Source: a virus. From it: a stretch of 64,000 nucleotides of DNA. Of the stretch, positions 58,301 to 64,000 are shown piece after piece. Made by a program: the position numbers and the translations under genes. The stretch is from positions 64,001 through 128,000 of the IMG/VR virus record IMGVR_UViG_3300031999_001882; one strand, written 5' to 3'. Position 1 is the stretch's first letter; every line of letters begins with the position of its first letter. Below the pieces are notes generated by a model. The model was not told where the DNA came from. It searched no databases and was given only the letters and a program-made list of their open reading frames with translations.

Positions 58301-59670
58301 TCCTCATCAAGCACCGGATAATCGGCCATGTCGCGCTCAATGCCTTCGGCAATCGCTACCTTGTCGGCGGCATCTTTATGGACCAGCAAGAATTCAACCC
58401 AGCCCACCGCCCAATGACCTGACTTTGCCACGACCACGCCATTGCCTTCGCCGCCCAAAGCTTTGAGCGCCGCATCGAAATTGGTTTTCTCAAGCGCTTC
58501 GGAGTCCCGGTTCTGCGTGAGCACGACATAATAATCGGAGTAGTCGTCGCCCATATAATTCTCGGCAGGCTTCCACAGTTCGAGCGCCTTGCGCTTTAAG
58601 CTGGCCGTGTCATAACGACCCTTGATGGGCGGCGCGGTCTTTTTGCCTGTGCCTTTGCAATAGGGGCACGTCTCCAAAGGCCCGGCTCCGGTGCGTGACT
58701 TCCCATAACCAGCGCAATACTCACACTCTGCTCCGTCTGCCGCCTTCGCTGTCATGCCGCCCTCCAAATAGACGTTGCCATCGTCGCCAACAATAGCATC
58801 GCAGTTCCCGAAGGCTCTGGCAATGTCGCTCAGCTTCTCACCCACATCGCCCAGCCCGCGATCCCAGAAGCCCGCGCCATGCCCACAGCGCGTCAGCCAG
58901 AAGTCATGGCCCGCCTGCTCATCGTCAATCTCATTTAAGAGATCGCCTGCTTGCTGGCGAAACGCCGCGCAATCGGCCTTGGCCTTCTCGATGCTCTCCG
59001 GGGCAATATCCTCGATCCCGAAGTTCTGATCCAGAGGTTCGCCGCCCGTCTCCGGGTCAGAGTTGTCGTTCGACGACCATAGCGCCGCTTCGAGATAGGC
59101 CGACACAAAGGGATCAAGCCCTGCGGCTTGCCGAGATGTCTTGGCCTGCTCATCGACCAGCCGCTTGTTGTGCTCGCCCTGCATATGCTCGAACGACTCC
59201 TCAGATTCATTTAAGGGTTCGCCCTTGGCTCGCTTGGCTTTGATCTTGGCTTCCATCTCCTCCTGCCACGCTACAGTCCCGAACTGAGCCGCCGACTTGG
59301 TTGCGGGCTTAACCTTGGCCCAGCACGCATCACACAGCGCCCCAAAATTCTGTTCGTTGAACATCCGCTCTCTGGCAGGCTGGCCGTCGTTCTTGCATTG
59401 GCGAGCCGCATCCCGGTTCCCGAAGTCCCGCTCTAAGATGCCCGTCTCGCAGGAGTCGCACAGCCCAGCCGCCGCGCCATAGGTATTGATGATGGTGTCC
59501 TTGCCACACTTCTTACACTTGCCTTGGGCGGCAGAGCGCTTGGAAGCCGCGCACGCGCAGGTTCCCCCGCAGGCGCACGTCTCCGACTCTTGACGAATTT
59601 TTGAAGGAGCTTTTTTGTCTTTTGGCTCCACGATATCTGTCCAATGATTTTTCAATACCGCTTTATCCAT
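52336..59670 (-). CDS. Giant mosaic (polyvalent-type) protein, 2444 aa
   Basis: Concatenated unrelated acidic modules, CxxC fingers and a ferritin-like helix pair, separated by basic [KR]-x-A linkers. Confidence 0.85.
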   Translation of the reverse strand: MDKAVLKNHWTDIVEPKDKKAPSKIRQESETCACGGTCACAASKRSAAQGKCKKCGKDTIINTYGAAAGLCDSCETGILERDFGNRDAARQCKNDGQPARERMFNEQNFGALCDACWAKVKPATKSAAQFGTVAWQEEMEAKIKAKRAKGEPLNESEESFEHMQGEHNKRLVDEQAKTSRQAAGLDPFVSAYLEAALWSSNDNSDPETGGEPLDQNFGIEDIAPESIEKAKADCAAFRQQAGDLLNEIDDEQAGHDFWLTRCGHGAGFWDRGLGDVGEKLSDIARAFGNCDAIVGDDGNVYLEGGMTAKAADGAECEYCAGYGKSRTGAGPLETCPYCKGTGKKTAPPIKGRYDTASLKRKALELWKPAENYMGDDYSDYYVVLTQNRDSEALEKTNFDAALKALGGEGNGVVVAKSGHWAVGWVEFLLVHKDAADKVAIAEGIERDMADYPVLDEEALTNAEQQEYRESFDVWGKDEALKWVKEDLAKELPAEKQEALEAYEPSERVLQLLWEAVESSFENNGEAFMDAKDLLKYAEDSGVHQAIKQELTPPENPAQMKMPFASKRKADRDAEIVKRDVEQEQAAIDEYRGQKEDASPALKEVLDHAISQEKEHRKEFEAKKVSRKAAALTDEQLAFLLDWARTEVNYSATLTEYAEGSGAEAVAMLKTLPAELTQGDGEALKTQVDWNAVENIGEIRTGWTLLTDTDMQSGHRVYMLVPPGGEVETAEMVLRVYANDWSKEDYQALTGEPLKEDEEPNTEFLYMSASDLATDFKLVFLDPYERNGGQFDSFGADFFKDQDNNVYVNPTEQRVGRRTRKSSMPENVSIKEALGGKFMVLVDGIQHGGERDKSGAGNKTFDSREEAMAYAKNISKEASRLAAKESFMKRFADEPRKPKHTFYRKVDLFTFDDLDEKAKDKVRYKYYEMADVDFWKENAESDLQEHGFVNPKVNYDLSSTQGSGVSFTAHMDVAKFLQAHPNERFNIFAKFYESLYIDLKSIDHHYSHKYTVKVEDNTPGSMDDLAAEAGMSTEEFEKLYVEFIQYIDEVRQELCSQLEKDGYAELEYQQSDEYIKEDAEANDLAFTESGEIEHLEEGDIPPTKQSSLKPLSKEAKVRLYSALGRRGAEEPIMPDEAYRMGYDEGFNIIITNKGEFQGYKDAQGNLDVEKIADEAFEAEQNGRQYTPFEFLASAFNKAENADELWEEYDRGVGEGISTGIAELQGKPPTQAARRKADAPLKENVDAPPCAVCRHPLKNHDNETRERRGQCDKCLDDEHHYIPVKHRKPPLEKKADDQAGPTGLVVKNEQTVPLMDYSQLTDEEKKELDYVENGEGDFFRYDGNIFDLGEFEVVEPNGDLAKLGFNGVKGAYASAGYAVKIDEVENDKVTVAWVYWKDTIASKRTASDLKDKSVAELEALIDNWMSRMNDVTDKGTQAYVAKRIKEAEAILQQKKSEKKASKRTAEAEVEEFDSEEMQEPAEDDIVIQTEGQLGGMYAAYQSGKKLAESPEWDELIAAVKAVDQGNFYPTIWFLDDHGGLQVVTSAQKCTLCHKADAEKGSRWCKDCKELADFEKELAEKHDRKAGIHKCPTCGKMNDIVNECGCDPDNMPTKVDASGWPPLEHNPKNQKDVKRLQDEDKKWRESPEKKESDEVRNSEEFKSWRKQKAAQRVSCPQCGKPVEMPEGWGEGDDPNEALCNECYSKLEARSAEEGEIGETCPICGNAIEAGDMIVDSKSEPGEVMPTSFAHANCVAMSEGDEWPGKPTAAMKVEAASNEQVIEMFAHDSFPKDKRDRWGTEHLTIQKYPGGWALVNYATPIVFRSNTGETFFNTQKYSVTTSKIQTQIRRYLSDATEGDEAGIKAAIQQAQDANAEEIGKAKAQPEEPMEMAASLDRFGGPEVSREQKIKQAIDMLSKDPDIIEMVKHIESKPATTKGHYGDYMGVLDQYKSQGKVMLHIISQALIGAGADAGGVQAALGIMTGSAFGSMEKKARGGISWKVLPNKNLEITATGDDLEEIRQDVEDQSDSRLLDYLEPMFGNGYMLVRPEQIGALTDSLIISDGSLDDNGEIDFGSKPKFWWYPQYELRSPLEDLAETGKTIFTYAGEEPFELKEASMEVESGLSDQVKSLRRKLKDLDVDKADPSEIASTVDALEKMEKRLKEQQEDRAKRKEEKAKEAEATPATAEVTAAKELKKAPYAVLKTAQEARDYAIGWQNWVSQQNLSYGELAEWGAYFEQLAERFPELKDEFVENGIIGGDTSVEKQAAVPGKITRKQKDEMAHLIQDAVYGYQINMMDISKVWKAGEEAYLRGGDVKAAVTALLDQIATKSDLPPAQAAQRAARYFDQFKSSDLVGSAWELDKESKKLRRKKLSMKLQSTADFFKNAGYRFAEGSHVWLVSGDKAEIIKRVASAISADKSYEVITLDSYGQRTGSQFTIAEKELEPTK

Positions 59671-60145
59671 TGCAATTACTCCTTGATTTCAAATTCGCCA
59701 AAGCGCTTTGATATGCCTTACTCGCCCTATGTTCGTCAGCGAACATCCCAAGATGATGACACTTGCCATCAAATTTAATTGCGGCCTTCCATCGTCTATT
59801 ATGCTTATCCCATGAAATGCCAACGAATTTTGACGAGAGCTTCCCTTCCTTTTTTCTTTTCTGATTGGATACGTTTTCTCTATTCGTGACGATCTGTAGA
59901 TTCTCTCGCTGATTGTTCAAGCCATTGCCATCCTTGTGATCGGTAACAAACCCTCGTTGCGGAACACCTGCGACACAATGGTGCATCAGTCGCCTTCGCC
60001 GCAAGCCATCTCCAAGAATTTCATTTCTGGACGCATAAAAAACATTGTGAGTGCGACAAGCACTCCACTTAAATTGATTAAGCTCGTTAAATATATCGTC
60101 ATCGACAAAAGCTACCCTGCCTTGAGATAATTTAATCTTCTTCAT
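59663..60145 (-). CDS. HNH-AP2 homing endonuclease
   Basis: TDHKDGNGLNNQRENL (HNH) plus SSKFVGISW...WKAAI...HLGMF (AP2). Confidence 0.9.
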   Translation of the reverse strand: MKKIKLSQGRVAFVDDDIFNELNQFKWSACRTHNVFYASRNEILGDGLRRRRLMHHCVAGVPQRGFVTDHKDGNGLNNQRENLQIVTNRENVSNQKRKKEGKLSSKFVGISWDKHNRRWKAAIKFDGKCHHLGMFADEHRASKAYQSALANLKSRSNCNG

Positions 60146-60940: not shown

Positions 60941-63900
60941 CTACGAAACAGACAACACTTGATCGAGGACATCCATCGCCTGAGCTTCTGTGAGCTTGAA
61001 CTCACGCATCAAATCCTCGGCAATTTCATCCTCATTGGCCTGACCCAGCCGAACAAGATCACGGGCCAAATCAAGAGCGCTGTTCGTAGGAATATCCGGC
61101 TCGGTCGGTCCTCGCTTCGGATATACGTCGCGTGTTCCAGTTTCTACAGCATCTTCAAATTGATCGCGGTAAGTGGCCGGGGCGCTTTGCCCCGGTGCTT
61201 CTGTCGGGCCGCCCTTCTCTGCGTCCGTGTCGGTATGCGCGTGCATATCGTTGGTCTTGAGACTGAACGGTTTGACCCAGCCCCAAGACACCATGCGCCC
61301 ATAAATCTCCGTGGCAGACATCCCTGTGCCGCCGCCTGTCTCCGCCGCATAGCGCTGTGCCAGTACCTCTGCCTGCTTCTCATCAAGGAACGCATGATCC
61401 GGTTCGATGTCTGTGCCAAGAAATTCGCGGGCCAAGACCAGCAAAGACTCCTGCTCGTCCTCCGCCCGGCGCTTGATCTCGGCCACCTTCTCGTTGCCGG
61501 AGAGCGAGGCTTCCAGCTCAAGGAGCCGGACAAAAGCCGGAGCGCCCTTCGCGGAAGCCGCAACCCACTCAAACCCACTATTGGATTTAGCGGTGCGCCA
61601 GCCGGGGTTGCCCTGAACCAGCGAGCGCCATTCATCGAACTCCGTGGCTTTCACAAAGCCAGCGCCAGACTTCACAAATATGATCCGGCCAATGACCTTG
61701 GGGGCCGGGCGCGGCGTTGGGGCTGAGGGCGGCGTGCGGACCACAGGCTCCTCGCCGGGGGCCGGGTTAGACTCCGGCTCTGGCTCGGCGGCGGGCGCAG
61801 GCTTCGGCGCTTCGCCTTTAATCTGATCCACCGGGGTCGGAGGCATGACTGGCCCGCCAGCCGGGGCAGATTCGTCCGGCTTCGGTTCCTTCGGGGGCGG
61901 CTCCTCAATCCCGGTCTGCTTGGATAGCTGGTCGTGAATCTTCCGCACGTCCTCTTTGGTGTATTTGAGCTGGTTGCGAGAAAGCCATGTGTAGATTTCG
62001 TGCTGGATTGCGTCGAACTCCATGCCTTTGAGCTTTTCTAAGGTCACCAGCTCAAGGATTCGGTTCGCCACATAGACAGGTTGGAGGGAGATCGCGGCCT
62101 TCACAGTCCCGCCGCGCTTGCCGGAGCCGCCACAGTCCGGGCAATCCACGAAATGCCAGCCATCCTCGGAATGCTCCTTGGCCTCTTGCTCGGCCCATAG
62201 CTTCTTGAACACTTCCCGGCTGTCGTCCGCCTTGACCGGAACAAAGCCCGTGCCTTCGCAATGGCCTTGGCACATGGTCGCCGGGTCAGGCAAAGCCATG
62301 CCCAGCGCCTCGTAGCGGTCCGATGCCTTTTTGCCGGGAAGCCTTGCCTGCACCACCAGATAGCCGCCGTCACCATCCTCGCCAATCACCTGAGCGCCGG
62401 AGCCAAAATTCACTTCCGTGGCTTCGCCATAGCGCCGCGCATCTGCCTTGGCCTTGGTCACCCACATGGCATTGATCGCCGGGATGCCTTCAAACTTGGC
62501 CCATTGGTCTTGGCCGATGTAGCTGGCCGCCGGGTTGCCCAGCTCCTCGACTTCGTGGCGCACGACATCGGCCACGCTCTCCTTGCCATGCTGATACCCG
62601 GTGTCGGCGCGGTACGCCTTGCCGTTCCAAGGGTAAGGGAACTTACCGGGAATCCCGGTGTCTCCGGCCACGGCCCCATTTCCCGGTATGCCAGCCGCCG
62701 CCTTGATATCGGCCCACGTCATCAGGTCCGCAGGAATGTCCGGCAAAATGTCCGGGGCTTTTGGTTGTAAAGACAATGCTTTCTTGGTGTTCTGCATCGG
62801 GATGATGGCGGCGGACTTGTCCACAGTATCCACAGACTTACCCACATTGCCGACCTTAAAAGATAGTTTCGTTTCTTGTGGAACAATTCTTGGAGCTAAG
62901 CTGTCGGGGTATGCGCTCTCAGGTTGCACAGGTGGCACATCCAAACCACCATGAACGGGTTGCTGTAATTCGTGTGACGCATCTCTGAATTTTGGCTCCC
63001 GCACTTGGCGCACGGTTCCTTCTTTATCAGACCCTTTTTGACGTAATATCTCGACAGCTTCCTCATGCTCACCTTCTCCGCTTGCGCCGGAGTGAGGGGC
63101 TTTTTCGTTCGTGGTTGTCGAGGGAGAGTTCTTAAAATCTCTTGATGGTGTGCGTGATGGCATGGACGACACAGCCACACTATTTCCAGAGGCTTGCTGT
63201 GATCTGGATGGTGCATTTGAGAGATCGGATTCCCGCACAGAGCGCAAGGCTCCATCACTTTCTCCTTGCCTCGCCGAAGATGATTCCAAGCAATCTGCCG
63301 CGCTTTTTTTCTCATCTTCTGCGCTTCCGTCAGAGGGCGACCCTTGCTCCACACCAGCATATACTCCCTCATGTATTTCCGATGACACATGAGGCAACGT
63401 CCATTGCCGCGCATTCTCTTTTGGCCGCACAAGCACAGAGTCGAATCCATGATCGTCAATTATAGACCACTTTTTAAGGCTACTCCAAACTTTCAAATCC
63501 TCAATGGACACATCCACGTTGGTCAAATTCTCCCAGAACTCCTTGCCCTCCGGCTCATACTCGATGCCGGACTCGATCTCGGCGCTCAGATTCAGCTTCA
63601 TCTCGCCGTCTTTCACGCCCGTGGCCTTGTTCACCAGCTCTACAAAGACCTCGGCAAACACCAGCCCCTCGTCCTGATCCATCCCGGTCACGATGATGTT
63701 CGGCTTGAACGCCGCGAAATCTAGCTCCAAATAGCTCGACACCAGATCGGGCAACACATCAAGCGTGTGAAATTCCACCTGCTCCGACCAGCGCCATGCC
63801 GCGCCCTCGCGCTCGCCTTCGGCTGGCGTAGGGGTGCGTGGATCGTCAACCTTCATGGTCTTAACGCTAGGCCCTTTGGCCTTCTCTGGTAAACTTGCGC

Positions 63901-64000
63901 CACCAGCCTCCGGCGGCTTCGCCGCACGGGGAGGCTCCGCCTCCGCATCGCCGCTCTCAGGTTGATTCGCCTTATCTGGCGAATCGTTTTTGATCTTGGT
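60941..64000 (-). CDS. Second large mosaic protein, 5'-truncated (>1019 aa), with ART-like and CxxC modules
   Basis: Frame stays open from 63856 to the window edge; KAYRAD...MWVT...ARRYG segment; modules bounded by KKAS and VKAA linkers. Confidence 0.75.
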   Translation of the reverse strand, partial: TKIKNDSPDKANQPESGDAEAEPPRAAKPPEAGGASLPEKAKGPSVKTMKVDDPRTPTPAEGEREGAAWRWSEQVEFHTLDVLPDLVSSYLELDFAAFKPNIIVTGMDQDEGLVFAEVFVELVNKATGVKDGEMKLNLSAEIESGIEYEPEGKEFWENLTNVDVSIEDLKVWSSLKKWSIIDDHGFDSVLVRPKENARQWTLPHVSSEIHEGVYAGVEQGSPSDGSAEDEKKSAADCLESSSARQGESDGALRSVRESDLSNAPSRSQQASGNSVAVSSMPSRTPSRDFKNSPSTTTNEKAPHSGASGEGEHEEAVEILRQKGSDKEGTVRQVREPKFRDASHELQQPVHGGLDVPPVQPESAYPDSLAPRIVPQETKLSFKVGNVGKSVDTVDKSAAIIPMQNTKKALSLQPKAPDILPDIPADLMTWADIKAAAGIPGNGAVAGDTGIPGKFPYPWNGKAYRADTGYQHGKESVADVVRHEVEELGNPAASYIGQDQWAKFEGIPAINAMWVTKAKADARRYGEATEVNFGSGAQVIGEDGDGGYLVVQARLPGKKASDRYEALGMALPDPATMCQGHCEGTGFVPVKADDSREVFKKLWAEQEAKEHSEDGWHFVDCPDCGGSGKRGGTVKAAISLQPVYVANRILELVTLEKLKGMEFDAIQHEIYTWLSRNQLKYTKEDVRKIHDQLSKQTGIEEPPPKEPKPDESAPAGGPVMPPTPVDQIKGEAPKPAPAAEPEPESNPAPGEEPVVRTPPSAPTPRPAPKVIGRIIFVKSGAGFVKATEFDEWRSLVQGNPGWRTAKSNSGFEWVAASAKGAPAFVRLLELEASLSGNEKVAEIKRRAEDEQESLLVLAREFLGTDIEPDHAFLDEKQAEVLAQRYAAETGGGTGMSATEIYGRMVSWGWVKPFSLKTNDMHAHTDTDAEKGGPTEAPGQSAPATYRDQFEDAVETGTRDVYPKRGPTEPDIPTNSALDLARDLVRLGQANEDEIAEDLMREFKLTEAQAMDVLDQVLSVS
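62896..63450 (-). CDS. Tandem HNH-like endonuclease nested out of frame inside 60941..64000
   Basis: Two copies: PCALCG...HHPDHSKPLEIVWLCRPCH and PCAKCG...RHTNYSNPFMVVWMCHLCN; track start TTG 63459, ATG at 63450. Confidence 0.8.
   Translation of the reverse strand: MDSTLCLCGQKRMRGNGRCLMCHRKYMREYMLVWSKGRPLTEAQKMRKKARQIAWNHLRRGKEKVMEPCALCGNPISQMHHPDHSKPLEIVWLCRPCHHAHHQEILRTLPRQPRTKKPLTPAQAEKVSMRKLSRYYVKKGLIKKEPCAKCGSQNSEMRHTNYSNPFMVVWMCHLCNLRAHTPTA
63459..63488 (-). promoter_or_regulatory. Putative internal promoter (TTGGAG-18-TATAAT) for the nested HNH gene
   Basis: Perfect -10 hexamer 8 nt before the ATG, consistent with a leaderless mRNA; weak -35. Confidence 0.4.

Follow-up and report, generated by a model that had tools for sequence, protein, structure and literature searches.

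An HNH-like endonuclease gene nested out of frame in the linker of a mosaic phage protein, whose reading frame appears to be kept open and read through without splicing

Homing endonucleases have been thought to persist inside genes only by means of self-splicing introns or inteins. In the present work we analyzed a 64,000-nucleotide (nt) stretch of viral DNA (hereafter the window; bases 64001-128000 of the 144,307-bp IMG/VR virus record IMGVR_UViG_3300031999_001882), in which a complete gene encoding an HNH-like endonuclease (62896..63450, minus strand) is found in another frame inside a much larger gene on the same strand, an arrangement that appears to extend a third way of persistence, with no splicing and with read-through in another frame, to a host gene and a nuclease family that are unrelated to those known for it. 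The closest described system is the ShiLan domain, an insertion in a mycobacteriophage methylase that contains no host-frame stops and hides an HNH endonuclease of 195 amino acids (aa) that is out of frame (Arsenault, Gosselin & Gogarten 2025, PMC11855218; building on Gosselin et al. 2023, PMC9957025). The former report describes a second hidden out-of-frame HNH in the Pacc40 gp60 insertion, and its account of ShiLan finds no intron or intein signature and no ribosome-binding site and proposes read-through without splicing together with a leaderless transcript (PMC11855218). The basis of that proposal was methylases of actinophages together with the lack of stops as such (PMC11855218).

The locus in the window appears to be of the same kind as the hidden HNH of ShiLan, and to be a new and independent example with another nuclease family and another host gene. 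As in the reported descriptions of ShiLan and Pacc40, a complete same-strand HNH open reading frame (ORF; 160-195 aa) occupies an alternate frame and adds no stop to the host frame, with approximately 18-22 nt before the start, a poorly structured host-frame product and a disjunct distribution among host homologues. Going by the published description, the ShiLan nuclease has a recognisable HNH domain at its centre that is flanked by zinc fingers, whereas the window nuclease belongs to phrog_2340, has tandem beta-beta-alpha modules and no Pfam HNH match, which sets the two apart. The ShiLan insertion is further described in a methylase loop of a temperate actinophage and starts with GTG, whereas the window gene starts with ATG and lies in a linker between modules of a mosaic protein (1436 aa) from an uncultured phage (~145 kb) whose genes are led by Shine-Dalgarno (SD) sequences. 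From the coordinates in that paper, the host frame is the +1 frame of the nuclease in ShiLan and the +2 frame in the window. In a tblastn search against 50,697 phage records, 328 matched the nested protein, including I-KsaII (Kayvirus polA), and no Mycobacterium phage was found among the ten organisms tallied or the matches listed for these 328. Relative to the ShiLan report as described above, the present analysis adds codon-level and dN/dS (ratio of nonsynonymous to synonymous change) tests.

The nested gene encodes 184 aa followed by a TAG stop, and an alternative TTG start at 63459 would give a product of 187 aa (62896..63459, minus strand). It lies wholly within the host frame 60941..64000 on the same strand with an offset of +1 and has two CxxC...CxxC/His-rich repeats. 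A preliminary description of the DNA, every descriptive statement of which holds, had reported a 184-187-aa ORF with two CxxC/HNH-type repeats, nested in a different frame of the same host gene. The host frame is open on the minus strand from 64000 to its stop at 60941 and represents the last 1019 codons of the 1436-aa protein P0001, called as one product by public gene calling. We consider it probable that the locus comprises a complete homing-type HNH-family gene under purifying selection, placed in the +1 frame within an inter-module linker, and that the host gene is read through unspliced; the overall interpretation of the preliminary description is thereby supported, each computational check that it had suggested having turned out in its favor. 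Translation in the host frame would run across 190 codons and yield a spacer, Ser-rich and disordered, that lies between the conserved N-terminal and C-terminal parts, with neither RNA nor protein splicing required for the host product. Host-frame stops would be purged through synonymous T-to-C changes that are costless to the nuclease, which in turn would be made at a low level by separate internal initiation at the ATG at 63450 and would presumably propagate the cassette through cleavage of alleles that lack it. Of these steps, translation through the insert, the way in which the nuclease is initiated and its cleavage or homing are inferred.

Across the nested ORF, the host frame contains 0 stops and the third frame 11, and the host-frame reading over the insert comprises 190 stop-free codons forming a predicted linker between host modules (62894..63463, minus strand), in keeping with the roughly 188 open codons reported earlier. 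The corresponding peptide is likewise Ser-rich as described (16% Ser; 69% polar or disorder-promoting residues), and an AlphaFold2 model of it, based on two sequences only, had a mean predicted local distance difference test score (pLDDT) of 51.6 and no secondary structure. The stretch was also confirmed to be AT-richer than its surroundings, with a GC content of 0.48-0.545 over 62700-63500 vs 0.57-0.66 in the flanks. In the nested geometry, host-frame stops are possible only as NNT followed by AA, AG or GA, and a risk site was therefore defined as a nuclease codon preceding a codon that starts with AA, AG or GA, where a T-ending codon creates a host-frame stop. T-ending codons were found at 0/48 risk sites in the window and 0/50 in the related contig L002 introduced below, and at 37/136 and 34/136 of the other sites, respectively (Fisher p 4.2e-6 and 8.4e-6). 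Synonymous resampling gave 4.8 expected stops for the window and 10.3 for L002, with probabilities of an open frame of 0.006 and <1/3000. In 40 control genes of the window, T occupies 16.8% of risk sites, which gives P ~1.5e-4 for 48 sites and makes the earlier rough chance of ~1e-4 a fair one; furthermore, 0/9,510 sliding 185-codon windows in the control genes were open in the corresponding frame, the longest open run being 177 codons. These statistics recast the lack of stops against null expectations, and are not independent of the original observation. Taken together, they indicate that selection maintains an open host frame. As NNT and NNC are always synonymous, each host-frame stop can be removed without altering the nuclease, and this silent T-to-C removability suggests a simple reason why a nested read-through arrangement can work.

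A second copy of the arrangement was found in L002 (IMGVR_UViG_3300032053_000009, 146,629 bp), whose host protein is ~50% identical to that of the window in the N- and C-terminal parts. Its nuclease (186 aa) is 70% identical to the window protein and located in the same place and the same relative frame, and the L002 host ORF of 1277 codons is uninterrupted across it: the host frame of this relative, where the preliminary description had advised looking for stops, has none, and the sole indel between the two nuclease copies is 6 nt. The per-frame comparison that had likewise been proposed gave a dN/dS of 0.13 in the nuclease frame, with a nearly saturated synonymous divergence (pS 0.69), and 1.37 in the host frame. 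These values point to purifying selection on the nuclease frame as a protein and to a host frame constrained solely to stay open, and give quantitative support for selection holding the host frame open, with amino-acid constraint confined to the nuclease frame. A metagenome scan for further carriers returned only the L002 contig itself. That the structure instead reflects chance or decay, i.e. a dying HNH pseudogene in a fortuitously open stretch or an assembly artefact, is extremely improbable: it has in its favor only the prior that DNA of 50-60% GC holds long alternative ORFs, and it is opposed by the dN/dS of 0.13, the intact set of family-invariant residues, the presence of the same structure in an independent metagenome contig, the probabilities of 1.5e-4 to 6e-3 per lineage and the lack of a single open control window. 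The nested ORF is thus a real gene under selection.

In the host protein P0001, a region with weak similarity to Pol-beta nucleotidyltransferases is predicted at the N terminus, outside the window, and is followed by a central cassette region that varies and a C-terminal part that is conserved; the window holds the C-terminal 1019 codons of the gene (60941..64000, minus strand). Four homologues, P0003-P0006, are each encoded by a single ORF (1089-1254 aa), and P0004, P0005 and P0006 (the last from L001) are continuous ORFs without the insert. The insert-bearing P0003 is 85-92% identical to the insert-free P0004 and P0005 and only ~50% identical to the window protein. The insert is thus missing at 3/5 comparable homologous loci, and each carrier genome has one nuclease copy; such patchy presence is as expected for an element that is mobile or can be dispensed with. 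A different possibility is that the gene is nested and read through as proposed, and that the nuclease has been domesticated, for example as a packaging-associated or anti-host HNH protein or as a phage DNA-binding factor. Some HNH proteins of phages serve purposes other than homing, among them GVE2 HNH (5h0o), which ranks second among the fold matches of the nested protein, and a dN/dS of 0.13 would fit any function. We nevertheless consider domestication unlikely, given the absence of the gene at three of the five loci, including near relatives of L002 at 85-92% identity, its single copy per genome and the occurrence of family members in many unrelated host genes.

The homologues share the sequences ...VDV[SA]IED[LM]K... 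upstream and AISLQPVYVANR... downstream of the variable stretch, and the segment VDVSIEDLK..KKWS (63466..63520, minus strand), common to the insert-free homologues, abuts the 5' junction of the cassette. The length of the variable stretch ranges from 154 aa in L001 (a zinc-ribbon module) and 209 aa in L002 (little more than the nuclease cassette) to 470 aa in the window (the nuclease cassette and a module of ~280 aa). In L002 the HNH cassette takes the place of the whole module, and DNA similarity between window and L002 breaks off where the nuclease ORF has its 3' end. The alignment of homologues and the continuity of the insert-free ORFs hence agree with the earlier suggestion of an insert lying as a linker between modules of a mosaic protein, and we place the cassette, on this evidence, in an inter-module linker of the host. 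The swap-prone nature of the central cassette zone is also what could be cited for the idea that the large ORF is functionally two genes, with the N-terminal part ending or released within the insert and the C-terminal part started independently. This is very improbable, as the 190 codons are stop-free in both lineages, which a gene ending in the insert would not need, the insert-free homologues are single ORFs, and no start codon with an SD sequence is evident just downstream of 62896. As for the other modules of these proteins, the ~280-aa module found in the window, within the host region 60941-62893 (minus strand), has two DnaJ-like CxxCxGxG motifs, and the relatives P0003 and P0004 carry a small zinc-ribbon module in its stead as well as a DarA_C-like module further on (PF18789, 1.6e-6) that the window protein lacks.

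Reading through the insert competes most directly with removal of the cassette from the mRNA by a group I or atypical intron or another RNA-level route, in which case the open host frame would be irrelevant. The precedent is I-KsaII from polA of the Staphylococcus Kayvirus phages K and Fi200W, which is homologous to the nested protein (38% identical over a 72-residue core, E 3e-14), is annotated as an intron-encoded putative endonuclease and likewise resides in an essential or large phage gene. I-KsaII is a single-module nuclease of 170 aa in an annotated intron, whereas the window protein has tandem modules. The Kayvirus intron has at least 166 nt of non-coding sequence upstream and ~135 nt downstream of the nuclease, and its host frame is closed by a stop at L006:1050. 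The flanks in the present locus amount to only ~22 nt before the ATG and, in L002, ~13 nt from the stop to conserved host sequence, and they appear, as the preliminary description had argued for a group I intron core, too short for a ribozyme core, which takes ~200 nt or more of structured non-coding sequence. Furthermore, a spliced insert would be under no selection against stops, yet none are seen in two lineages with nearly saturated synonymous sites, and host-frame stops are also avoided in nested family members of other host genes. Such selection would have no rationale unless the host frame were read by ribosomes, which favors read-through over splicing. Two points speak for removal at the RNA level, namely the annotation of I-KsaII and the unreliability of Rfam for ORF-bearing introns, as seen from a failed positive control; we nevertheless regard it as distinctly unlikely. 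A group I intron-encoded arrangement was accordingly rejected for the window on the grounds of the short flanks and of a host frame that is open and seemingly kept so by selection.

Inteins with HNH or LAGLIDADG nucleases similarly combine a selfish nuclease in a coding gene with an open host frame, but an intein nuclease is in frame and flanked by Hint blocks, whereas the window nuclease is out of frame. No Hint or intein signature was found in a Pfam scan of the host-frame peptide, which is moreover predicted to be disordered, and an intein was rejected on these grounds, in accordance with its earlier exclusion from the frame of the nuclease. Free-standing phage homing genes (T4 seg/mob, and an HNH_3-AP2 gene in the window, see below) resemble the nested gene in being small, self-started and patchily distributed among related phages. 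They lie between genes or split their host into two ORFs, whereas the window gene lies within an uninterrupted ORF.

The start of the nested gene is preceded at a distance of 8 nt by a -10-like TATAAT hexamer (63459..63464, minus strand), as had been noted before. Its presence stands, but its role as a promoter of the gene's own is weak, there being a -10 box only, with a degenerate TAAAAT at the same spacing in L002. A leaderless transcript beginning at the ATG and directed by the TATAAT box is a possible mode of expression. A TAA in the nuclease frame is found immediately upstream of the TTG/ATG, so that entry by frameshifting from the host frame was rejected. A comparison of the regions upstream of nested family members gave no common promoter or SD motif.

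In the PHROG database, two stretches of the nested protein matched phrog_2340 ('endonuclease'; 5.8e-18). Searching 1.8 billion representative sequences with a profile yielded 14,245 relatives at E<=1e-3, 455 of them at E<=1e-10, and the best 150 were small proteins of 74-306 aa. In a word-indexed search of a catalogue of 5.8 billion proteins the nested ORF was absent, presumably because nested ORFs go uncalled; standard gene callers miss such genes, and annotation then gives the host proteins spurious 'disordered linkers'. The family consensus consists of a Cys4 ribbon and two helices followed by a core with the pattern C-x2-C-G...H-H-x-D-Y-x-K-P-L-x-V-x-W-L-C-x2-C-H-x3-H. An AlphaFold2 model of the window protein (72 sequences; pLDDT 94.4) has a helix plus strand-strand-helix unit twice. 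Sequence, model and family alignment place an N-terminal Cys4 zinc-ribbon (CxC...CxxC) at residues 6-23 (63382..63435, minus strand). Repeat 1 (residues 66-102; 63145..63255, minus strand) is a predicted beta-beta-alpha-metal core and the putative active site, with strands at residues 78-80 and 91-93 and a helix at 95-108 in the model. Its pair of CxxC motifs frames a His-His...His motif, and all family-invariant residues are retained (C69, C72, H80, H81, D83, P87, W92, C94, C97, H98 and H102); all of these except P87 and W92 are the invariant or nearly invariant positions of that motif and its CxxC pair in the family. Repeat 2 (residues 144-180; 62911..63021, minus strand) is a second beta-beta-alpha module by sequence and model and is degenerate, with R and N at the positions equivalent to H80 and D83, respectively, and, in the window as in L002, N at that equivalent to H98. 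Since the H98 equivalent is missing in both, repeat 2 is probably a non-catalytic, DNA-binding duplicate.

Structural comparison of the nested protein with VIA-align gave the Gme HNH nickase 4h9d as the best match (Z 5.2, root-mean-square deviation 3.2 over 66 residues), followed by the phage GVE2 HNH protein 5h0o (Z 4.7) and, lower down, many further HNH entries including T5 SciA, Cascade-HNH, McrA, I-HmuI and T4 endonuclease VII. Foldseek found nothing in the PDB at E<=1e-3 for the model, and a sequence search of the PDB returned only a spurious match to a PHD finger (E 0.53). The protein is therefore best described as HNH-like by motif and fold, and as a putative nuclease.

Several of the results count against the interpretation of the locus as a nested, read-through homing endonuclease gene, or detract from the tests made in its favor. 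Pfam and NCBIfam contain no HNH model that matches the nested protein, nor any other matching model, phrog_2340 being its sole profile match, and the best HNH fold matches, at Z 5.2, fall below the VIA-align noise guideline of Z 8. There is no clean empty site in the host gene of the window itself; the central region is a variable, swap-prone cassette linker, which would account for the lack of a simple one. A promoter scan passed no -35 box, and thus identified no full sigma-70 promoter for the nested gene, and no SD sequence occurs between the TATAAT and the ATG, though most genes of this phage carry a clear one. Finally, Rfam gave no match at E<=1 in the window or L002, a null result of little weight since the known Kayvirus polA intron with I-KsaII, used as a positive control, was missed as well. 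The latter case (Rfam 15 at E<=1, annotated polA intron in L006, Staphylococcus phage Fi200W 104998-108213) calls for caution in excluding ORF-bearing group I introns by such searches.

To place the window gene in the context of its family, 80 IMG/VR loci with family members, found by a narrower family alignment, were compared. The +2 frame was stop-free across the nuclease match in 18/80 loci and the +1 frame in 1/80, and GC content is not the explanation, as within the 0.5-0.6 GC bin the +2 frame was open in 9/41 loci vs 0/41 for the +1 frame. In 15/80 loci the +2 frame formed one ORF over the whole match, and in seven the enclosing ORF had at least 300 codons (L008, which is L002 again, L022, L025, L027, L033, L051 and L053). 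Risk-site p values were 4e-5 to 1e-3 in L051, L088, L025, L027 and L011, and weaker, 0.02 to 0.10, in L022, L053 and L033. Up to about one-fifth of the family members in viral contigs may accordingly be nested (18/80 by a stop-free frame; only seven clearly so).

The hosts of these nested genes are diverse, the clearest cases being a GGDEF-RadC protein and a GT8-like transferase. In L025 (649-5286, plus strand) a protein of at least 1546 aa carries a single-module family member out of frame at ~2498-2806, with a GGDEF domain on its upstream side (residues 418-550) and, downstream, a RadC JAB domain (residues 1373-1473). L051 (2101-3120, plus strand) and L088 (1501-2523, plus strand) each encode a 340-aa GT8-like glycosyltransferase with a nested member in the same relative frame and in one surface loop; the nested ORF in L088 is located at 1850-2236, and that in L051 lacks an ATG where the start aligns. 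Identity between the two insert-bearing hosts is 57%, and of 3,644 GT8-like homologues the best 120 are mostly ~240 aa long, those that were aligned being without the ~100-aa insert. In L027 (1-1173, plus strand) a 102-codon nested member (290-598) is found with the frame open in an ORF that has a weak match to a terminase large subunit (phrog_5653, 2.8e-7); if this host is a terminase, an essential gene would be read through an insert. The enclosing ORFs of L053 and L022 comprise at least 1625 and 948 codons, respectively. A by-product of the conserved nuclease core, a motif of roughly ...APSRLRQA..., recurs in the host-frame readings of all clearly nested members. In the family tree, which has little resolution, nested rows are scattered (8 changes for 9 rows), and a single origin of the nested forms was not retained as a claim, the tree bearing out neither one nor many origins. 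We lean, with somewhat better than even confidence, towards the view that the phrog_2340/I-KsaII-like family represents a widespread 'read-through' class of homing endonucleases, a third route beside introns and inteins, that has repeatedly invaded unrelated genes (mosaic virion-type proteins, a GT8 glycosyltransferase, a GGDEF-RadC protein and possibly a terminase) and always with the nuclease in the +1 frame of the host, the one geometry in which a silent T-to-C change can erase any host-frame stop.

Inserts of another kind, 70-110 aa long, occupy the same loop in further GT8-like homologues (P0272, P0235 and P0246; L090:601-1557 and L091:601-1662). No recognisable nested ORF was found in the insert-bearing P0272 and P0235, and the loop inserts in L090 and L091 may be remnants of nested genes or unrelated loop insertions. 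In L010 (2128-2826, plus strand) a small upstream protein, of ribbon-helix-helix type as judged by eye, has no stop until 8 codons past a downstream HNH gene, its frame traversing the whole nuclease ORF as a C-terminal extension. The window itself encodes a separate, free-standing endonuclease of 160 aa with HNH_3 and AP2 domains (59663-60145, minus strand; PF13392 2.3e-7, phrog_99 6e-26), the 3' end of which overlaps the ATG (59670) of the upstream 2444-aa gene by 8 nt. A 153-aa AP2 gene is found just after the host gene in the P0004 contig, in a position comparable to that of the HNH_3-AP2 gene in the window.

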